A stretch of DNA of 64,000 nucleotides from Enterobacter phage vB_ExiM_F4M1E, in the sequence record OL744216.1. One strand, given 5' to 3'. Within the stretch, counting starts at the first letter, position 1. Each line of letters begins with the position of its first letter. The position numbers and the translations under genes are program-made. The notes beneath the pieces are model-generated. The model searched no databases. It saw only the letters and a list, made by a program, of their open reading frames with translations, and was not told the DNA's origin. Of this stretch, positions 18,142-37,694 are shown one piece after another.

Positions 18142-18795
18142 TTAGTCAAGAACAAATGGTGCCGTCGGCACCGAGAAATTACCGTCGTAACGGGCTACTT
18201 TGCTGATACGGAATTGGTCAAGCCCACCAAACATCGTTTGTTCGCCGAACCCGATCCTTGCGAAACGGCTTACGTCACTCCACCCTCCAGAAACAAAGGA
18301 TGTGGTGGTTGGTGCCACTTTACCGTTAATATATAACTTCGTGACCCCTCCTTTGCTCACAATGGCGATATGTGCCCAGTTGGAAAGAGGCCAGTAGTTG
18401 GTACTAAAGCTCAAATAATTCTTCTGGTCCTGAAGATAAACCACGCTTTGGTAAACCTTGAGGCAACTCTGCGTACCTGTTCCAAAGTACATCCACCAAG
18501 AAGAGGCAACTGAAGAGTTTCTTGACCAAAATTCAATAGTGAACTCGTCCTCTGGTTTGAAGACGAGATCTGTTTTCTCTGTCGCCACCATCTCAAAATA
18601 GCTGGTAGCGGTAGTACAGTCAAAGTATTTGTTGTTGAATTTTCCGTAACTTCCGGTGCCTACTGTGGCTACCTTGGAAAATTGCCGGGTAGGCTTGGCA
18701 ACATCAATACCACCCTTGTCTGCTTGCAGGAGAAGGAGAGTCTTATCTCCCTTCACGCCGCCGCTTGCACCAGCCGCCAAAAGAATTTCCTGCAC
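18142..18795 (-). CDS. concanavalin-A-like lectin/glucanase (LamG-like) domain protein
   Basis: beta-sandwich signature ...FGGLDQFRISKVARY... at C-terminus. Confidence 0.4.
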   Translation of the reverse strand: MQEILLAAGASGGVKGDKTLLLLQADKGGIDVAKPTRQFSKVATVGTGSYGKFNNKYFDCTTATSYFEMVATEKTDLVFKPEDEFTIEFWSRNSSVASSWWMYFGTGTQSCLKVYQSVVYLQDQKNYLSFSTNYWPLSNWAHIAIVSKGGVTKLYINGKVAPTTTSFVSGGWSDVSRFARIGFGEQTMFGGLDQFRISKVARYDGNFSVPTAPFVLD

Positions 18796-18805
18796 TTTTT
18801 ACTCC

Positions 18806-19477
18806 TTAATGATTGAAGTGGTAAACAGCCCGGGCAAACCCTTCGGGGGTCAGCGATCGTAACTGTTTGGTCCTCTCCGACTTACCGCCTAAAAACTTCC
18901 ACCCCCAGAAGCAGCCTATATGAGGTACAGGCTTCTTGTCGGGCATCACAAAGCCATTCCCTACCCAGAGGCAAGTTTTCTTTGTGTAGGCGTTCCTGTA
19001 CGGCATTTTTGGGTGATACGAGCCTTCAATCTGGCTCAGGTATCCGCCATACTCGTAAGGGTCGAAGTAATGGTCCGGCTTACGCCAGAGCGTACTCATT
19101 TTCCCAACCGGATTTTCAACCATCCACGGGCAGTCGAAAACGTTGGCAACACGCTCTACCATTTTAGCATTATCTATCGACTCCATCAACTCTGATTTTG
19201 TCCGGGTGTGTTTGGCCCCGGCAACTGACAGGTTGGTGCAGCTTGGGAATGCGAAGATGATGTCCGGCTTAGGGATGCCCGCACCCATCGCAAAGGCCAA
19301 GAAATCTTCGTCGATCCAGCAATTAACATACTGGATGTTTGGATGCTCCCGGCGCAGTTCATACTGCCCATGATCGGCGGTGTCTGCATTGAAGCAGAAC
19401 ACCTTCCAACCATTGAGGGCGTACTCGTACCCCATGAAGCCGGAGCCATCAAAGAGGCTCCAGACGACTTTAGACAT
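18806..19477 (-). CDS. DNA (cytosine-5)-methyltransferase
   Basis: motif I LFDGSG, motif IV FPSCTNLSVAG (PC), motif VI WMVENP (ENV); GAGGAA RBS at MSKVVW. Confidence 0.7.
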   Translation of the reverse strand: MSKVVWSLFDGSGFMGYEYALNGWKVFCFNADTADHGQYELRREHPNIQYVNCWIDEDFLAFAMGAGIPKPDIIFAFPSCTNLSVAGAKHTRTKSELMESIDNAKMVERVANVFDCPWMVENPVGKMSTLWRKPDHYFDPYEYGGYLSQIEGSYHPKMPYRNAYTKKTCLWVGNGFVMPDKKPVPHIGCFWGWKFLGGKSERTKQLRSLTPEGFARAVYHFNH

Positions 19478-19478
19478 A

Positions 19479-19733
19479 TTATTCCTCACAAACAGGGGCG
19501 ATGATGATACACGGGGTGTATACGGATCGGCCCTGACTATCTGTCAGGTTTACCTGACTCTGCCCATGAAGGATGTCTTCTTCATCCGCTGAGAAAGTAC
19601 CTGCACCATACTGAATCAGAAAACGAAGTTGAAGGATCAGGTAGATCGAATCCATACCGGAAGAGTCCAGCAGATCTTCCATATCGAAATCCACCATGAT
19701 TCGCTCTTTGTCCAAACGTACCCAATATTTCAT
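19479..19733 (-). CDS. hypothetical protein (start MKYWVRL)
   Basis: internal ATG with GAAGGGGA RBS. Confidence 0.4.
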   Translation of the reverse strand: MKYWVRLDKERIMVDFDMEDLLDSSGMDSIYLILQLRFLIQYGAGTFSADEEDILHGQSQVNLTDSQGRSVYTPCIIIAPVCEE

Positions 19734-26551: not shown

Positions 26552-26747
26552 CAGTTTCGAAACAGAAGAAGCCCTCGCATACCGTGCCGTCTTGGCGGGT
26601 AAAGTTGACGATGACCTCATCGTCGTCGGCGTCAATAGAGACTACGACGCCCTTATCCCCCGGATTAACCCCGTCGAGGCTGTAATCTTGCAGGTTTTCC
26701 GGATTGAAGATAACCTTTTCGCCTACCGCTACCAGTTTGTTGCTCAT
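26529..26747 (-). CDS. hypothetical acidic protein
   Basis: 72 aa ORF. Confidence 0.4.
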   Translation of the reverse strand: MSNKLVAVGEKVIFNPENLQDYSLDGVNPGDKGVVVSIDADDDEVIVNFTRQDGTVCEGFFCFETDVEVCGD

Positions 26748-28105
26748 ACCTCACCTCCAAAAATTTCAGGGAACGTTTCATGATAGAACTTACGGACACC
26801 CTGGTCAACAATAATGTCCTTCACACGCAGGCGCTTCATCAGGCGAAGACCTTCAGTGCTCGTTGCTCGGGACAGCATAACATAGGCTTGGCCCGGCGTG
26901 AAGGTGCCGAAACCTAAATCAATGTTCACTTTGCCCAGCGTCAGGCCCTGTGCTTTGTGTCCGGTGATAGCATAGCCCAATTTGAACGGGAATTGCAAGT
27001 ATTTCCCGATCTCTTTGTCAACCAGAACGGTTTGCTTCTCCATCACCTTGACAGTCTGCTTGGTGCCGTCTTCCAGTTCGATCTCTTTTTCAACCTGAAC
27101 CATCTTTTCTTCCGGGACCTGTGTCACGTTGGTCCACTCGTACTTGCCGATATGGATCGGCTTGCCGTCAATGTCCACGATGACGAAGGTCTTGGCGATT
27201 TTCTTGATGATCCCTACCGTACCGTTAACGTAATCTGGCTCCTTTTTCTTCTGGTCATTGTCGTTCACAACGATCATGACCTTCAGACCTTCTTTCAGGT
27301 TCAGAACTTCGTTGACCGGGCGCTCCGGGAACTCACCTGAGATCTTGGCTTCGAAAACATGAGGCTCGGCCTTGATCTTCTCAAACTCGCGCTGATTGAT
27401 TTGCTCTGCCAGTTTGTTGGTGGTTGTCAGAGTGACAGCACCTGGCAACGCCGGGCCGAAGCACTTCTCGTTGAAGTAATCAACTGCCGCACCAACATTA
27501 TTACCCACACGAATGTTGTTCAGGTGTTCAGCAAACACCGGGTCGGTCTGTCGGTGGACCTTCGGCAGATACGCATTCGTGAAATTCAGTTCGTTCCAGA
27601 TATCGCAGCCGAACGGGATTTCATTACCATGCAATTCACGGAACATCGCCGTTTCTTCACGCTTCAGCACAGGCTTGATCTGGAAGCCGTCGCCAAACAT
27701 GATGACCTGAAGACCACCAAAAGGCTTATTTACCTTACGATGATAGCGCAGTTTCATGTCGATCTCACGCAGCTTGTCACTACGGGTCATAGAGATCTCG
27801 TCAAAGACGATAGCATCTAACGCATCTGACGCCATCAGCATCGCAGGCTTCTTAGACTTCGCTTTGTAGTCTTCCTTGGTTGTAACACCAAAGGTAAGGC
27901 CAAATGCCTTATGGGTGGTAATGCCGTTAATATTCAGCGCCGCAATCCCGGTTGGTGCAACAAACAGGAAGCTGTCGGCAAAGAACTCACGCAGAGTGGC
28001 GATCATCAAACTCTTGCCCGAACCACCCGGGCCTGTGATGAACACGTTTTCACCTGCCATGATGGCTCGCATTGCTTCTTCGTTACCAATTACTGTCTTA
28101 CCCAT
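26744..28105 (-). CDS. SF1B DNA helicase (Dda/RecD/Pif1-like)
   Basis: Walker A GPGGSGKS, Walker B IVFDEISM, motif III FGDGFQIKPV. Confidence 0.8.
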   Translation of the reverse strand: MGKTVIGNEEAMRAIMAGENVFITGPGGSGKSLMIATLREFFADSFLFVAPTGIAALNINGITTHKAFGLTFGVTTKEDYKAKSKKPAMLMASDALDAIVFDEISMTRSDKLREIDMKLRYHRKVNKPFGGLQVIMFGDGFQIKPVLKREETAMFRELHGNEIPFGCDIWNELNFTNAYLPKVHRQTDPVFAEHLNNIRVGNNVGAAVDYFNEKCFGPALPGAVTLTTTNKLAEQINQREFEKIKAEPHVFEAKISGEFPERPVNEVLNLKEGLKVMIVVNDNDQKKKEPDYVNGTVGIIKKIAKTFVIVDIDGKPIHIGKYEWTNVTQVPEEKMVQVEKEIELEDGTKQTVKVMEKQTVLVDKEIGKYLQFPFKLGYAITGHKAQGLTLGKVNIDLGFGTFTPGQAYVMLSRATSTEGLRLMKRLRVKDIIVDQGVRKFYHETFPEIFGGEV

Positions 28106-28299: not shown

Positions 28300-28497
28300 T
28301 TATTCGTTACCCACGGTATGGATAAATAGGTTTAAAACTATTGCCACGCCAGTTAACAGCCCGCCGAAGAACATGACCAGCGGAACCTCATTGGCAAAAG
28401 GAGAGGCCATGAGTTCAGGGAACATCTTTTCAACACCCCATTTTCCCAAGCCGATCCAAATCAAGGCATTTACCACCACTGCAATAAGAAATCTCAT
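28300..28497 (-). CDS. small membrane protein
   Basis: two TM helices. Confidence 0.45.
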   Translation of the reverse strand: MRFLIAVVVNALIWIGLGKWGVEKMFPELMASPFANEVPLVMFFGGLLTGVAIVLNLFIHTVGNE

Positions 28498-29024
28498 GCT
28501 TTCATCTCCTTGGGTTTATAAAATACATGGTAGCCGATAGTGGCTGTCTTCGTAAAGAACTTTCTCCAGTATGGTTTGACCTTCTTCGTGTGGAAGTGAG
28601 TTGCGCCATGTGTTGGGTCCAGCTTGTTATACAATACATCATTGTTCCGGATCTTGTAAAGGAATTTCGCAATATCCTGTGCAACCATCCAAGACTCTTT
28701 ATCACGAACGGCGTACCCGCTACGGATCATCGTCCAAGAGAATTGAGAGGATTGATATACGACTTTCCTCACTGACTCCGGATAACCGTCATGTTTCAGC
28801 CTGTTCAGAGTAACAAATCCAACCGCCATCTGTCCACTGATATTTTCCCCACGCGACTCGAAATAAATATTGCAGGCCAAGGCATTGACCGACGAGTCAT
28901 TCTTTTTGCACACATGAACAACCGGGGCGAGCTTTTTCTTCGGTGTATTCTCTTTAGCTAAGGCGGATGCCGGGGCTAAAGAAAGTACGCTGGCTGCAAT
29001 GAGGGCAGCGGTGCTCTTTCTCAT
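28494..29024 (-). CDS. secreted cell-wall hydrolase, SleB/CwlJ (Hydrolase_2)-like
   Basis: signal peptide MRKSTAALIAASVLSLAPASALA; NIYFESRGE...GQMAVGFVTLNR motif; TAGGAG RBS. Confidence 0.55.
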   Translation of the reverse strand: MRKSTAALIAASVLSLAPASALAKENTPKKKLAPVVHVCKKNDSSVNALACNIYFESRGENISGQMAVGFVTLNRLKHDGYPESVRKVVYQSSQFSWTMIRSGYAVRDKESWMVAQDIAKFLYKIRNNDVLYNKLDPTHGATHFHTKKVKPYWRKFFTKTATIGYHVFYKPKEMKA

Positions 29025-29073
29025 ACAAACTCCTAAATAAGAAAGGCCCAGTTTATCACTGAGCCTTTGGAAG

Positions 29074-29475
29074 TCAAGCCTTTTTGGAGGCTTGAGCGAG
29101 GACGCCCTTCTTAACATCTTCCCAAAGGGAATTGAGGAAAGGGTCGTTCTTGATCACATCCGGATACCAAGGCCCGTAGATACGGTATACGGAATCCACA
29201 GTGATCGCATACAACTGCCCGCCATTAACTGCGAGGCCAGTTACGTAGCCCGTTCGGACTTGGGTGCCATCTTTGCCAGTCTTCCGGCGCTTCGCCTCAT
29301 TGAACTCGATATAGCCCGTCAATGTAACGATCTTCTCGGGGACTTGCAGGTCGGGCAGCTTTTCATGATTGATTAGCTGATTACCGGACTTGCTGCCCTC
29401 CAGGCAAAGATTACCCCCGTACTTCTTGCCGTACTTCCTGGCAAACTCAGCCATTTTAGTCGTGGACAATTTCAC
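29074..29475 (-). CDS. hypothetical protein
   Basis: 133 aa ORF. Confidence 0.5.
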   Translation of the reverse strand: MKLSTTKMAEFARKYGKKYGGNLCLEGSKSGNQLINHEKLPDLQVPEKIVTLTGYIEFNEAKRRKTGKDGTQVRTGYVTGLAVNGGQLYAITVDSVYRIYGPWYPDVIKNDPFLNSLWEDVKKGVLAQASKKA

Positions 29476-29977
29476 TCTCCTTCAGAACATAGATGGTCAC
29501 ATCGAAGTCTCGCAGGCGACCCTCGATCATCCGGGAGATGATACCCCAATCACCCCCGGCAAGTCCAGCCCCGATTTTAGGCAGACCGATCTTCAGATCG
29601 TGGGTTGGCATGTCAAGAATACGACACTTGGCATGAAGAGACACCGCCATCGCTGACAGCGCCGAACGCAGTGCCCAGTAATCGAGGTCCATCTTACCCT
29701 CTTTGCGACCCGTGAAGGTGTACTGGCTGTACAGGTTGTACACCAGCAGACCATTCTCGGAGAACGCGCAGGATAATGTCCCCAACTTTGCCTTATCTCC
29801 CCGTACTGTCATCTGGTCCGCCGTCCATGCCTCTGGGAACGCCTCGGCTATCTTCGGGGCAATACCAGACTTCATTGTATTCATGCAGTTGCAGCCGTGG
29901 GCGATGACATTCACCTCCCCGGCCTTTGCAGCCGTGATCAGGTTGCCTACCTTGTACCGTATTTTACCACATGGCAT
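29456..29977 (-). CDS. macro-domain (ADP-ribose binding/processing) protein
   Basis: VNVIAHGCNCMNTMKSGIAPKI and LPKIGAGLAGGDWGI segments matching macro-domain motifs; GAGGTGAA RBS at MPCGKIRY. Confidence 0.5.
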   Translation of the reverse strand: MPCGKIRYKVGNLITAAKAGEVNVIAHGCNCMNTMKSGIAPKIAEAFPEAWTADQMTVRGDKAKLGTLSCAFSENGLLVYNLYSQYTFTGRKEGKMDLDYWALRSALSAMAVSLHAKCRILDMPTHDLKIGLPKIGAGLAGGDWGIISRMIEGRLRDFDVTIYVLKESEIVHD

Positions 29978-29978
29978 C

Positions 29979-30191
29979 TTAAAGTTCACCTCGCTTCGCT
30001 CTCTGGCAGATCTGGAGAACATCGTAGCACGACTGCTTCACAATCCAAGGCTCCCCACGATACAGGGTGATGAGGGTCCCTTTACGATCTGTCCCCTCGA
30101 TCTGTGTCACTTGTGGGTGAAACTCCCGGATATTTGCAACATCGAGGCAGATCGATTCCTCAGAAGCCAGTTGATTGAGATATACAAACAT
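29979..30191 (-). CDS. hypothetical protein
   Basis: 70 aa ORF. Confidence 0.4.
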   Translation of the reverse strand: MFVYLNQLASEESICLDVANIREFHPQVTQIEGTDRKGTLITLYRGEPWIVKQSCYDVLQICQRAKRGEL

Positions 30192-30199
30192 GAACCCTC

Positions 30200-30466
30200 C
30201 TACAGGTATTGGCTTTCAAGCCACTGCGCCGCCTCGTCAGGTGACTTACAGTCTCGCTTTTCGTTGATGGTAAACCAGCCGTCGATGCAATTACACGCCC
30301 AGTCTTCCTCGTCCTCTTCCTCCGCACGTTCTTGAACCTCAACATGCCAAGTGCCGTCCCAGCTCTGGTCGATAATTACCTGAACCTCATTGTGGAGTTC
30401 TTTTTCCACACGGTCAGCAACCTCATTGAACTGGTCCATAATATCAATTTCATTTTCCACTTTCAA
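30200..30466 (-). CDS. acidic hypothetical protein
   Basis: 88 aa, EEEDEED tract. Confidence 0.45.
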   Translation of the reverse strand: MKVENEIDIMDQFNEVADRVEKELHNEVQVIIDQSWDGTWHVEVQERAEEEDEEDWACNCIDGWFTINEKRDCKSPDEAAQWLESQYL

Positions 30467-30827
30467 TCTCCTTCAGTTTGAGAGACAGAGCCTCAACCTC
30501 ACGCTTGAGGTCTTCAGCCTTCAACACTGTTCGGGACCACTCTTGGGCTTTATCCATGAGTTGCCTACCAATAGCGATCGCCTCTGTAGCGCACACAATT
30601 TCGCCTTTACTATAGCGAACCTTGACAGTCCTGTTGTATGGCACAGCACACCAACCCACCGCACCAAGGTTAGTGTAGTGGCTGAATTTGTACGGCCCCC
30701 AAACTTTACCCGTCTTTTGGTTGAAGACCCAAAAGTCATCACCCCATTTCAGTTGTGGGTTCCAACTTTTATCGATCTCGTCCTGATATCGGTAGTCACT
30801 CGGTTTGTATTCCGGTCGTCTGCTCAT
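30450..30827 (-). CDS. hypothetical protein
   Basis: 125 aa ORF. Confidence 0.5.
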   Translation of the reverse strand: MSRRPEYKPSDYRYQDEIDKSWNPQLKWGDDFWVFNQKTGKVWGPYKFSHYTNLGAVGWCAVPYNRTVKVRYSKGEIVCATEAIAIGRQLMDKAQEWSRTVLKAEDLKREVEALSLKLKEIESGK

Positions 30828-31270
30828 TCTTCAGACCCCATCATGTTGAGTTTACGGCCCGCCCGCATCTCTAAAAATGCTTTCAGGTCCCCAAACTTCC
30901 CTGTCGCCACCGCTCCCGCTGGCGCTCGGTTGTAGTCCCAGGCTTCCTTCGCCTCCTCGATATCACCAACACGGGCTTCGATCTGCTTTCTCAGAGAATA
31001 CGCAGAATAGCCAGAACGGATGACTCTGGGCGGAACATAGCGAATAATACCTGCATCAATTGCACGTTGGGACATTGCGACCTTGTTCCTGTGCATCTTG
31101 ATACATTTCACTACGTACTCCTCGAACTCTTTCTTGAACGCCGGATGGATCAGTGCCTCCGGGGCATAGAAATGCACCACACGATATTGACCATCCTCAC
31201 CTTTGAGGTACTGAATCTCTGGACGACCAAATTGCACTGTCACATCAAAATCTTCAATCGTAAATTTCAT
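30824..31270 (-). CDS. hypothetical protein
   Basis: 148 aa ORF. Confidence 0.5.
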   Translation of the reverse strand: MKFTIEDFDVTVQFGRPEIQYLKGEDGQYRVVHFYAPEALIHPAFKKEFEEYVVKCIKMHRNKVAMSQRAIDAGIIRYVPPRVIRSGYSAYSLRKQIEARVGDIEEAKEAWDYNRAPAGAVATGKFGDLKAFLEMRAGRKLNMMGSEE

Positions 31271-31313
31271 CTAAAAAGCCCTCTCTGTTTCCAATGAGGG
31301 CAGATTACATGAC

Positions 31314-36281: not shown

Positions 36282-36808
36282 TATTCGTCATCCTCATTTT
36301 TGTATCGGCTTCCCTTGACATTAAAACCAACATCAGCCAAGGCATGAGCAGGCAGTCTGCCATCATCTGTCCAGAAACTCAAGGACTTTTTCTTCTCTTC
36401 CAATTCCTTATCCATCAGGGCCAATAAGACTGCCGGATTAGTCTTCGGCATAGCCTGCTGGCATTTAGAAAGCGCGGCATTGAACTGGCGGGTAATGATA
36501 TCGATCTGGTCCACCATGTCAAGTTCATCCATCGCTTCTTTACACACACAGCAGTGACCAATGTTTTTGTATTCATCCTGCCCGGTGCGGTGGCTGTACT
36601 GCTTCTTCTGGATAGGGAGCGCCCGGCGACCACAGTAAGCACACGCCCGCATTCGATCACCCTTGCCGAGGGTGGCTGTTGGGCGGAGACCTTCTTTGGT
36701 GCTGTCCCAACCTTTATGGTTTCCATTACGCCCGTACATCCAAGAGAAGAACTTTTGTGCTCTCTCATCGACATGATCTTCGCCTGCGTGTTCTGTGTGT
36801 TCAAACAT
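36281..36808 (-). CDS. HNH-type endonuclease-like protein
   Basis: CAYCG...H...N.GHCCVC arrangement consistent with HNH/zinc-finger nuclease fold. Confidence 0.4.
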   Translation of the reverse strand: MFEHTEHAGEDHVDERAQKFFSWMYGRNGNHKGWDSTKEGLRPTATLGKGDRMRACAYCGRRALPIQKKQYSHRTGQDEYKNIGHCCVCKEAMDELDMVDQIDIITRQFNAALSKCQQAMPKTNPAVLLALMDKELEEKKKSLSFWTDDGRLPAHALADVGFNVKGSRYKNEDDE

Positions 36809-37007
36809 TCCCCTCTCCTTTCATAAATTGAGCGAATGCCAACAAGTCCGCCGGAGACATGTGCTTTACATACGCCCCGTACTCACCATACAAGTTCTCC
36901 AAGACTTCCGGGCATTTGCCGGGGTGGAAGCCGAGGTTCTGGAGATTCTCGATAGTGGTGGCGATCAGCAGTAATTTTTTGAAGTCTTCTTCTTTCATTC
37001 TTAACAT
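36801..37007 (-). CDS. hypothetical protein, first gene of the leftward block
   Basis: 68 aa ORF directly downstream of leftward promoter. Confidence 0.45.
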   Translation of the reverse strand: MLRMKEEDFKKLLLIATTIENLQNLGFHPGKCPEVLENLYGEYGAYVKHMSPADLLAFAQFMKGEGNV

Positions 37008-37067: not shown

Positions 37068-37130
37068 TACTTGAATCGTATTTTTGTTCATGCTACCTTA
37101 TTGTTCACTAAACATGAACAGGAGAGCACC

Positions 37131-37694
37131 ATGAACAAAGTCTTATCCCCGGCAGAGCAGCTTGCCATGATGATCAAGCTGGCAGCAACCCACCATATGA
37201 AGCAATTCGATAAGGGTGGTCGCCCTTACGTCCTGCACGTCCTGAAGGTGATGCATTACCTTAAAGACAAGGATGATGACGAACTAAACTGTATCGCAGT
37301 TGGTCACGATCTGATCGAAGACACTCCGGTTCAACAGTGCGACCTGGAACGCTTAGGTATCTCCGATCGTGTCATCGACGGGATCACCCGCTTAACCAAG
37401 GTCCAGTTCCAGTCTCATGATGAATATCTGAAGGATATTCTGAAGAGCCATGACGCCTGCCGTGTTAAGCTGGCTGACCTGCGCCACAACACAGATATCC
37501 GCCGTCTGAAAGGTTTGCGTCAAAAAGACTTGCAGAGAATCCAAAAGTACCATAAAATGCACATGCAGATTAAGGACATGATTGCATGGTACGAAGACAA
37601 CCATTTGAGCATGTTCTCTTTCCCGGGTGATTACTTTGATGCCCGCAACGAGCAGGTAAAATCAATCATGGAGAAAGAATACGATGCGAATTAA
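37131..37694 (+). CDS. small alarmone hydrolase ((p)ppGpp/(p)ppApp hydrolase, HD domain, Mesh1/SpoT-hydrolase-like)
   Basis: HD-domain motif GGRPYVLHVLKVM...AVGHDLIEDT; AGGAGAG RBS; first gene of rightward block. Confidence 0.65.
   Translation: MNKVLSPAEQLAMMIKLAATHHMKQFDKGGRPYVLHVLKVMHYLKDKDDDELNCIAVGHDLIEDTPVQQCDLERLGISDRVIDGITRLTKVQFQSHDEYLKDILKSHDACRVKLADLRHNTDIRRLKGLRQKDLQRIQKYHKMHMQIKDMIAWYEDNHLSMFSFPGDYFDARNEQVKSIMEKEYDAN

Follow-up and report, generated by a model that had tools for sequence, protein, structure and literature searches.

Gene Organization at the Locus

The window, a 64,000-nucleotide stretch of DNA from Enterobacter phage vB_ExiM_F4M1E (OL744216.1), contains a macro-domain gene on the minus strand at positions 29456–29977 (ATG start at 29977, TGA stop at 29456–29458). 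Translation of this strand gives 173 residues followed by the stop codon; the plus strand of the same interval is interrupted by stops. An initial annotation had described an open reading frame with two glycine-rich macro-domain segments, without mention of the strand. Both motifs are present on the minus strand: HGCNCMNTMKSGIAPKI corresponds to residues 27–43 and IGAGLAGGDWG to residues 135–145 of what we call the macro protein.

The Shine-Dalgarno sequence of this gene, GAGGT (29988–29992, minus strand), was read directly from the DNA 10 nt 5′ of the ATG. It sits within the 3′ end of the upstream gene, the TAA of which (29979–29981) is separated from the macro ATG by a single nucleotide, an arrangement that implies translational coupling. 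Alignments of homologues to the macro protein begin at about residue 6. The start of the macro gene is soundly placed at the ATG of 29977; the longest open reading frame (188 aa, extending to 30022) and the GTG start annotated in the Certrevirus KaOmega (177 aa) are both less likely.

The macro gene lies in a cassette of six small genes with a terminator-like hairpin at each end, separate from the downstream SleB/helicase unit. Four minus-strand genes precede it (30824–31270, 30450–30827, 30200–30466, and 29979–30191; phrogs 12513, 16224, 11018, and 12235, together spanning 29979–31270), all of them confined to Certrevirus. The last cassette gene (29074–29454, minus strand, phrog_12555) is a homologue of KaOmega gp96, encodes 126 aa from an ATG at 29454, which starts 1 nt past the macro stop codon, and is likewise confined to Certrevirus (present only in loci L010–L013). 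Its PHROG alignment starts at residue 8 of the open reading frame. For the other five genes of the cassette, Pfam and PADLOC returned no match.

At the 5′ boundary, a hairpin with the stem GCCCTC...GAGGGC followed by TTTTT (31273–31301, minus strand; ΔG = −20.8 kcal/mol, z = −4.3) is found just 5′ of the first cassette gene, and phage phiTE has an annotated terminator upstream of phiTE_042, the homologue of that gene. At the 3′ end, an 11-bp stem followed by CTTATTT (29042–29068, minus strand; ΔG = −18.8 kcal/mol, z = −3.3, with 0 of 200 shuffled sequences as good) lies directly 3′ of the stop codon of the gp96 homologue, and the phiTE record has a terminator annotated at the homologous position. 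The motif AGGAG-N5-ATG follows this second hairpin, and its ATG at 29024 is likely the true start of the SleB-like gene. A consensus scan for sigma-70 promoters and terminators gave counts no higher than the shuffled expectation, and we retained only these two hairpins, which combine significant folding with coincidence with terminators annotated in phiTE. The initial annotation had placed the macro gene among replication genes. What surrounds it is a terminator-bounded accessory cassette that stands apart from the SleB/helicase unit, and the argument drawn from that placement is not supported.

Fold and Family of the Macro Protein

The macro protein matches PHROG 335 with E = 2e-61. Searched against PDB sequences, the family profile finds BT1257 (1e-18), SCO6735 (4e-16), TARG1 (1e-12), Poa1p (1.5e-10), and DarG (1e-7). 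An AlphaFold2 model (pLDDT 92.8, pTM 0.89) was assigned by Foldseek with probability 1.0 to TARG1, BT1257, DarG, Poa1p, and SCO6735, with target-normalized TM-scores of 0.72–0.85 to these five structures and E values of 3e-11 for TARG1 and 2e-9 for Poa1p. The fold predicted by AlphaFold2 and Foldseek is the three-layer α/β/α arrangement of the macro superfamily. The generic Pfam Macro model scored 17.7 bits, under its threshold of 22, and was therefore not relied on; the fold is settled by the profile and structure evidence. In alignment and in model, the likeness of this product to macro domains far exceeds chance. The proposal of a macro-domain protein in the initial annotation is thus borne out, and the structure prediction suggested there as a check did return a macro-like fold. 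The product is a stand-alone macrodomain and probably an active ADP-ribose-processing enzyme.

Macro proteins of this family are very common in phages (approximately 2,900 phage records), and the gene is in itself ordinary: a widespread phage gene that has for a long time carried the labels "phosphatase" or "macro domain protein". [quoted passage not shown] By its sequence, the macro protein is a member of this Tk.4/AdfM–Adpp phage family, a group of the ALC1/TARG1-like class with an SCO6735-type active site. T4 AdfM (directed against DarT2) and Adpp (directed against aRES) fall into one single Gln-type macro family.

Within this family, the closest characterized relatives by sequence identity are the macro proteins encoded in NARP1 operons (Table S1 of the Adpp preprint), with 48% identity for the protein from JG004 (E = 1e-49), 48% for that from VCM, and 49% for that from PPSC2. 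Gary Adpp is 42–43% identical (E = 5e-30). These proteins are nearer than T4 Tk.4/AdfM, which belongs to a more distant branch (30% over 161 residues, E = 7e-20 by BLASTP). A Tk.4-like protein of phage UPEC07 shares 36–39% identity with the macro protein and the EF1-1 family member shares 51%, and PhiKZ AdfM gave no significant match in the same comparison. In a neighbor-joining tree, the clade of the macro protein adjoins a NARP1-embedded relative with a bootstrap value of only 21%, and approximately 10% of the replicates were probably invalid (numerical warning). Because of this value, we used the ranking by distance and identity and set the topology aside; assignment to an Adpp or an AdfM clade by phylogeny was dropped for the same reason. 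Membership in phrog_335 does not discriminate between the two types either, since this group also includes the DarG-type AdfM from PhiKZ.

Active Site and Comparison with Characterized Macro Domains

H27, N30, and Q85, three residues of catalytic type, do not vary among 57 homologues. H27 aligns with H24 of both Gary Adpp and SCO6735, and N30 aligns with SCO6735 N27. Q85 is aligned to Q85 of SCO6735, to a Gln of BT1257, to K84 of TARG1, and to K80 of DarG, so that the position held by the catalytic Lys in TARG1 and DarG is taken by Gln, as in SCO6735. Mutation of Q85 abolishes the activity of SCO6735 (PMC9411070). An H24A construct of Gary Adpp is listed in Table S4 of the corresponding preprint, and Adpp mutations are reported there to abolish anti-defence against aRES (bioRxiv 10.64898/2026.01.28.702374). 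The two glycine-rich loops of the macro protein (G38-I39-A40 and G136-A-G-L-A-G-G142) align with their counterparts in TARG1, SCO6735, and DarG; across the 57 homologues they show little or no variation. A mobile loop of the SCO6735/BT1257 type is about 5 residues longer than that of TARG1 or DarG and carries basic residues. The macro protein aligns with SCO6735 and BT1257 without a gap in this region, whereas TARG1, DarG, and T4 Tk.4 are gapped by 4–7 residues; its basic loop residues are R91 (nearly invariant), K92, and K95.

Adpp shares with the macro protein the A-H-x-C-N-C motif, including the His targeted by the H24A construct, as well as N-x-Y-x-Q, the long mobile loop, and the G-x-G-L-A-G-G-D-W loop. 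T4 AdfM is also a stand-alone macro protein of similar size with Gln instead of the catalytic Lys, and its motifs read H-G-C-N-C and N-L-Y-x-Q. It differs in the shorter mobile loop of its clade and in the sequence GIGKGNW where the macro protein has GLAGGDW. SCO6735 from Streptomyces coelicolor (PDB 5E3B) and BT1257 (2FG1) represent the same Gln-type ALC1-like subclass (PMC9411070) and have in common with the macro protein the His and Asn of the first loop, the basic long mobile loop, and a GLAGGxW loop. These proteins are cellular rather than phage-encoded, share just 28% identity with the macro protein, and contain H-x-C-N-D where the phage family and Poa1p contain H-x-C-N-C. Lysines K34 and K89 of SCO6735 have no exact match; K36 and R91/K92 of the macro protein lie one or two positions off.

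Likeness to Poa1p, the ADP-ribose 1″-phosphate phosphatase from yeast (PDB 6LFQ), extends to the fold and to H-x-C-N-C, and Poa1p is the origin of the "phosphatase" annotation of phage homologues. Poa1p S30 and F152 correspond to T34 and A140, and at position 85 Poa1p has Ser rather than Gln. Poa1p and human TARG1 are eukaryotic housekeeping enzymes, unlike the phage protein discussed here. An enzyme of the TARG1 type was rejected, since the Lys84/Asp125 dyad is missing and the aligned positions are Q85 and A140.

DarG and the chimallivirus AdfM (PhiKZ gp104; PMC13309987) belong to the same ALC1-like macro class and the same broad PHROG 335, and the anti-defence logic is alike in that an eraser is carried by the phage. 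However, DarG-type proteins are only 15–20% identical to the macro protein, which has Y-S-Q85 in place of the F-P-T-K catalytic Lys (K80 in the Taq protein). The NCBIfam DarG model NF048014 scored 26.9 bits against a cutoff of 250 and aligned over profile positions 1–146 of 338. The PADLOC match to DarG likewise covers the macro part alone. A bona fide DarG antitoxin was rejected, because the macro protein lacks the Lys and the C-terminal DarT-binding domain and has no adjacent darT.

Relation to NARP1 Genes

Among the 80 nearest viral relatives in IMG/VR, 40 loci from several lineages have NARP1-like genes at most 10 kb away. Both Adps-like and Namat-like genes occur in 34 of these loci and one of the two in the remaining 6, although some "Namat-like" neighbors share only 25–30% identity and may instead be NadV or PRS. 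In the nearest relative outside Certrevirus (L016, 56% identity), the macro gene lies between an Adps-like and a Namat-like gene on the same strand, with one intervening open reading frame on either side. The linkage to replication genes implied by the initial annotation is confined to 14 of the 80 loci, in which a helicase is nearby and which all come from a single lineage, that of the phage considered here.

A search for Adps and Namat within the 64-kb window found none. KaOmega encodes a macro protein with 100% identity to that of the window. KaOmega gp285 is Adps-like (34% identity to Gary Adps, E = 2e-39) and adjoins gp286, a Namat that matches the phage Namat structures 9W5W/9W5X with E = 8e-123 and canonical NAMPT with about 1e-45. 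A PDB search with gp285 matched classical PRPP synthetases only and no Adps structure; the Adps call is hence based on homology to the validated Adps of Gary and on adjacency to a clear Namat. The pair lies at 139.9–142.7 kb and the macro gene at 60.9 kb, some 80 kb apart, on opposite strands and in different transcription units. The macro gene and an unlinked Namat co-occur in all eight complete Certrevirus genomes among the matches listed (KaOmega and seven others), with Adps examined in KaOmega alone.

At least in KaOmega, the phage lineage of the macro protein carries Adps as well as Namat, as does that of Adpp. In contrast to Adpp, which is encoded within a NARP1 operon, the macro gene occupies a separate terminator-bounded cassette, and so lacks the genomic feature by which Adpp is defined. 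This position is also beyond the definition in the preprint (at most two genes from NARP1), and Certreviruses do not appear in Table S1. T4 AdfM resembles the macro gene in having no NARP1 linkage and in being located among small accessory genes, but Namat is undetected in T4-like phages. Namat is similarly undetected in other phages that keep the macro family, namely, the rV5-like "nom", Kutterviruses, and EF1-1, which indicates that a NARP1-independent use of this family exists.

Proposed Function

It is very likely that the macro protein counters host defence by way of ADP-ribose chemistry, as the initial annotation had proposed. From the fold, the family, the conserved catalytic-type residues, and the NARP1 co-occurrence and linkage observed here, we infer its substrate and in vivo role. 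Adpp is an ADPR-1″-phosphate phosphatase that lets the NAD+-rebuilding NARP1 pathway overcome aRES (bioRxiv 10.64898/2026.01.28.702374). Since the macro protein is nearer to the NARP1-operon proteins than to T4 AdfM, since NARP1 genes occur in its lineage, and since half of its nearest relatives are linked to them, we tentatively favor an Adpp-type ADP-ribose-1″-phosphate phosphatase as its most likely role. The enzyme would bind ADP-ribose and take off whatever C1″ of the distal ribose carries. Specifically, a host RES-domain defence protein (aRES) would phosphorolyse NAD+ to nicotinamide and ADPR-1″-P; the macro protein would convert ADPR-1″-P to ADPR; and the unlinked NARP1 enzymes Adps and Namat, placed in this scheme from KaOmega, would remake NAD+ from ADPR and nicotinamide. 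The initial annotation had also raised interference with "NAD-derived signalling", but the closest characterized relatives, Adpp among them, point to NAD+ depletion and reconstitution instead.

Alternatively, and quite conceivably, the macro protein could be an AdfM-type factor against DarT2, which would cleave the N-glycosidic bond of thymidine N3-ADP-ribose on phage ssDNA and so allow replication and transcription to resume, the role put forward for T4 Tk.4/AdfM. The idea of the initial annotation is in essence the same. Homology to tk.4 and the shared A-H-G-C-N-C and N-L-Y-x-Q motifs argue for this role, given that knockout of tk.4 renders T4 sensitive to DarTG2 (bioRxiv 10.1101/2025.11.20.689424). 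SCO6735 and BT1257 are the top PDB sequence matches, and SCO6735, the nearest relative of solved structure with a matching Gln active site (Gln85), clears DarT-made T-ADPr from ssDNA faster than DarG or TARG1 (PMC9411070). The long mobile loop of SCO6735, proposed to be an ssDNA clamp, is kept with R91, K92, and K95, and the family endures in phages without NARP1. On the other hand, the T4-clade loop is 5–6 residues shorter, the NARP1-operon proteins are more similar to the macro protein than T4 AdfM is, and the recurrent partner of the subfamily is NARP1 (40/80) rather than DNA-metabolism genes (14/80 for helicase, from one lineage). The supposed replication block is a separate terminator-bounded cassette. 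PhiKZ AdfM, for which anti-DarT2 activity is biochemically proven, is of the DarG type with the FPTK lysine and only about 15% identical, whereas the support for T4 Tk.4 is genetic.

The Adpp-type and AdfM-type roles are compatible. DarT2 reversal is a strong rival to the former and might also exist beside it, with one active site that may in addition release the ADP-ribose placed by DarT2 on ssDNA thymidine. A dual-use enzyme that serves as a general eraser of C1″ substituents, both feeding unlinked NARP1 against aRES and clearing DarT2 marks, is a rather doubtful extension. If true, it would explain why some phages retain the family within a NARP1 operon and others retain it without any NARP1. 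T4 AdfM and Vibrio phage Adpp, which were described independently, would then be one enzyme family with two uses.

An eraser of other ADP-ribose conjugates is unlikely, whether these are Glu/Asp-linked mono-ADPr on proteins, CmdT-type ADPr on RNA, or O-acetyl-ADP-ribose to be deacetylated. The fold is near TARG1 (Foldseek E = 3e-11), SCO6735 also handles protein substrates (PMC9411070), and ADP-ribosylation of mRNA is known to serve in defence against phages (PMC11618068). Yet the macro protein has Q85 and A140 in place of the TARG1 dyad, and SCO6735 is inactive on ADP-ribosylation at the RNA 2′-OH and, according to the results section of the same study, on the 5′-phosphate-linked form (PMC11833690). 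Some source databases do name relatives "O-acetyl-ADP-ribose deacetylase", but these names are automatic transfers, and none of the phage members of this family has been tied to such substrates.

Macro domains that are pure readers exist, and phage sponges are used against Thoeris, so that a non-catalytic sponge for ADPR-derived immune signals such as Thoeris cADPR isomers would fit the NAD-derived signalling mentioned above; we regard it as highly improbable and rejected it, because the invariant H27, N30, and Q85 correspond to residues on which catalysis by Adpp and SCO6735 depends, both characterized family members are enzymes or inferred to be, and no link to Thoeris was found.

Implications for Phage Anti-Defence

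The macro gene belongs to a known enzyme family and does not define a new system; what it adds is the case of a close, NARP1-unlinked homologue in a Klebsiella/Enterobacter phage. Close homologues of Adpp are unlinked from NARP1 in whole genera, namely, Certrevirus and, it appears, Felixounavirus and further ones. A count made from operons, like the figure of 15% for NARP1 phages with Adpp, may on this account be too low an estimate of the phages able to cope with RES-type phosphorolysis of NAD+. The presence of AdfM and Adpp in one Gln-type family also raises the question as to whether one active site serves against both defences. Homologues of aRES are on record in Klebsiella, Enterobacter, and Pectobacterium, which are among the host genera of this phage group, and the aRES genes that have been tested are from K. 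pneumoniae, Enterobacter chengduensis, and E. coli. Where Klebsiella or Enterobacter is the target of phage therapy, the macro gene is a candidate factor in host range among strains that carry aRES or DarTG2.

Identity and active site of the macro protein

The reading frame at 29456–29977 on the minus strand is open for 173 residues, and the plus strand of this interval is interrupted by stops. Both Gly-rich segments quoted in the initial annotation are present (HGCNCMNTMKSGIAPKI at residues 27–43, IGAGLAGGDWG at residues 135–145). The coordinates proposed there likely delimit the coding sequence, because a GAGGT motif lies 10 nt 5′ of the ATG at 29977, the TAA of the upstream gene stands one base before this ATG, and homologues align from residue ~6. 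The window is a segment of a Certrevirus (Vequintavirinae) genome. Klebsiella phage vB_KaeM_KaOmega (KaOmega) is 97.7% identical to it across the macro region, and KaOmega gp97 ("putative hydrolase") matches the window protein at 100% amino-acid identity. In the Cronobacter CR3/CR8/CR9 and Pectobacterium phiTE group (~84% identity), the gene is labelled "putative phosphatase".

The assignment as a macro domain was borne out by sequence profiles and structure. The generic Pfam Macro model stays below threshold (17.7 bits vs 22), and PHROG 335 matches with E = 2e-61. A profile of 57 homologues retrieves, among PDB sequences, BT1257 (1e-18), SCO6735 (4e-16), TARG1 (1e-12), Poa1p (1.5e-10) and DarG (1e-7). 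Structure prediction, suggested earlier as a check, yielded a confident AlphaFold2 model (pLDDT 92.8, pTM 0.89), for which TARG1, BT1257, DarG, Poa1p and SCO6735 are the top Foldseek matches (probability 1.0 each). The family comprises 931 proteins at E ≤ 1e-5 in a word-indexed search, or 5,343 representatives of 50% identity clusters at E ≤ 1e-3; of 50,697 phage records, 2,930 contain a match. PHROG 335 mixes Gln-type proteins (T4 Tk.4, Gary Adpp, the window protein) with the Lys-type, DarG-like PhiKZ gp104; its label "phosphatase" traces to yeast Poa1p, and annotation based on it does not tell substrates apart.

Aligned with solved relatives, Gln85 occupies the position of the catalytic lysine (TARG1 K84, DarG K80) and Ala140 that of TARG1 D125. 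The same arrangement is described for SCO6735, in which Gln85 is indispensable and the site is lined by His24 and Asn27; its mobile loop exceeds that of TARG1/DarG by five residues and carries lysines that are proposed to clamp ssDNA (PMC9411070). The window protein likewise has the His, Asn and Gln of this site (H27, N30 and Q85, invariant among the 57 homologues) and a long, basic mobile loop (R91, K92, K95). From its sequence, it looks like an enzyme rather than a reader. Its fold, family and probable catalytic competence are established; its substrate we infer. Identity with DarG was rejected: the NCBIfam DarG model scores 26.9 bits, below its cut-off of 250, and the C-terminal DarT-binding domain is absent. 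No darT gene was found near the macro gene.

Candidate functions

Among the proteins compared by BLASTP, the window protein best matches macro proteins from operons of NARP1, the phage NAD+-rebuilding pathway of the enzymes Adps and Namat, listed in Table S1 of the Adpp preprint: JG004 (48% identity, E = 1e-49), VCM (48%, 2e-47) and PPSC2 (49%, 2e-46). Adpp of Vibrio phage Gary (42%, 5e-30), a Tk.4-like protein of UPEC07 (36%, 5e-27), T4 AdfM (30%, 7e-20), and SCO6735 and BT1257 (28%; 1e-10 and 1e-12) follow. In a neighbor-joining tree, the window clade adjoins L016, the closest relative outside Certrevirus (56% identity), and is distant from the T4 clade; since bootstrap support for the deep nodes is low (21%), we relied on the identity/distance ranking alone.

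Among the 80 nearest IMG/VR loci (40–89% identity, 10-kb flanks), Adps-like and Namat-like genes both lie within 10 kb of the macro gene in 34, and one of the two in 6 more. In L016, the macro gene is flanked by an Adps-like and a Namat-like gene, a single ORF intervening on either side; in Pakpunaviruses, the gene order is Adps, small ORF, Namat, small ORF, macro. Uncultivated viral contigs of up to ~360 kb, several of 200–360 kb (L047, L048, L052–L058, L061, L067, L068, L072, L078, L080), encode a shorter homologue (~127–145 aa) between a Namat/NadV-like gene (25–28% identity) and an Adps/PRS-like gene (26–30%), an arrangement that may be a diverged NARP-type operon in which the macro gene is included.

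Gary Adpp, encoded between Adps and Namat, converts ADPR-1″-phosphate, the product of the host RES-domain defence aRES, to ADPR, from which NARP1 can rebuild NAD+; the anti-defence effect required all three genes, and Adpp mutations reportedly abolish it (construct H24A, Table S4; bioRxiv 10.64898/2026.01.28.702374). H24 aligns with H27 of the window protein. Homologues of aRES are on record in Klebsiella, Enterobacter and Pectobacterium.

Neither Adps nor Namat was found within the 64-kb window. In KaOmega, gp285 and gp286 are adjacent at 139.9–142.7 kb: gp285 combines a PRPP-synthetase fold with 34% identity to Gary Adps (E = 2e-39), and gp286 matches phage Namat crystal structures 9W5W/9W5X with E = 8e-123 (canonical NAMPT, ~1e-45). 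This pair (MN013077, 139942–142674; L005, 39942–42674) adjoins a tRNA gene cluster outside the window. Among Certreviruses, Namat is 97.6–99.4% identical over its C-terminal 167 residues, whereas the macro protein is much less conserved (84–89%). A chimeric macro+Namat query hit each of the eight complete Certrevirus genomes listed at two distinct places, and did likewise in Felixounaviruses, some Ackermannviridae and others.

Given the similarity ranking, the recurrent NARP1 linkage of the subfamily and the conserved co-occurrence in the genus, we tentatively favor an Adpp-like role: the window protein would convert ADPR-1″-phosphate to ADPR, which would feed an unlinked NARP1 pathway.

A strong rival, which we regard as possible, is an AdfM-like role, in which the protein would remove DarT2-made thymidine-ADPr from ssDNA. 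In T4, HIDEN-SEQ on a DarTG2 host returned tk.4 (a second name is AdfM) as its sole hit, and knocking out tk.4 renders the phage DarTG2-sensitive (bioRxiv 10.1101/2025.11.20.689424). T4 ΔadfA ΔadfN remained resistant to DarTG2 (PMC11825919), which we ascribe to continued protection by Tk.4. The A-H-G-C-N-C and N-L-Y-x-Q motifs of the window protein recur in Tk.4, but identity between the two is just 30% and the loop of Tk.4 is shorter. The second AdfM, PhiKZ gp104, strips DarT2-made ADP-ribose off DNA (PMC13309987); this macrodomain is genuinely of the DarG type (E = 9e-25 vs Mtb DarG, FPTK lysine present) and has just ~15% identity to the window protein. Two of these three key precedents (PhiKZ AdfM, T4 AdfM, Gary Adpp) are preprints. 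Besides the T4 precedent, the SCO6735-type site and loop speak for this role, as does retention of the family by phages without NARP1: with the chimeric query, T4-likes, rV5-like phages, Kutterviruses and Escherichia phage EF1-1 gave a macro match and no detectable Namat. The EF1-1 protein (PQ571289, 124682–125155; H157) is 51% identical and encoded by a 148-kb phage, so a fairly close relative appears to be retained without NARP1. A rough record count that ignores kinship suggests that ~40% of macro-bearing records also hold a Namat/NadV-like gene, a figure that presumes no more than one Namat-like site in each record and is inflated by duplicate records and NARP2-type NadV genes.

The two roles are compatible. 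Each reaction splits off a group attached to C1″ of the distal ribose, which makes a dual-use enzyme plausible, if rather unlikely. In either role, the window protein would be of a kind already known.

Genomic setting

The macro gene sits on a long minus-strand array that farther downstream encodes a SleB-like hydrolase, a Dda-like helicase (26744–28105), a primase/helicase, a DNA methyltransferase and a DNA polymerase. It belongs to a six-gene cassette (31270 to 29074) bounded by hairpin and T-tract terminators at 31273–31301 (ΔG −20.8 kcal/mol, z = −4.3) and 29042–29068 (−18.8 kcal/mol, z = −3.3), both matching terminators annotated in the phiTE record. The other five proteins are small and Certrevirus-restricted, and no domain was detected in them. 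Helicase linkage occurs in just 14 of the 80 related loci, all of Vequintavirinae-like lineage. Because the gene lies in a separate bracketed cassette and this linkage is limited to one lineage, its placement in a "replication block" does not support the DNA-protecting role initially drawn from it.

The gene 3′ of macro (29074–29475, minus strand; phrog_12555) is Certrevirus-restricted and translationally coupled to it by TGA-1nt-ATG; its similarity to a methyltransferase-labelled PHROG is weak (E = 3.5e-6), and Pfam and PADLOC gave no match. Just downstream of the cassette, the SleB-like cell-wall hydrolase ORF (28494–29117, minus strand) probably starts at ATG 29024 rather than at the longest-ORF start; this ATG lies in the context AGGAG-N5-ATG and is followed by the signal-peptide-like MRKSTAALIAASVLSLAPASALA, and the phiTE record annotates the short form. 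The linkage recurs: 29 of the 80 loci, Pakpunaviruses included, have a SleB-like gene no more than 10 kb from the macro homologue.

Gene orientation changes from the minus to the plus strand at ~36.8 kb; the switch at ~36808–36859 implies a divergent control region, just past which lies an HD-type "metal-dependent phosphohydrolase" (KaOmega gp118; ~37071–37694, plus strand). Between the primase/helicase and DNA polymerase genes, 18142–19489 (minus strand) holds genes for a DNA methyltransferase (phrog_757) and for a product that resembles large virion structural proteins.
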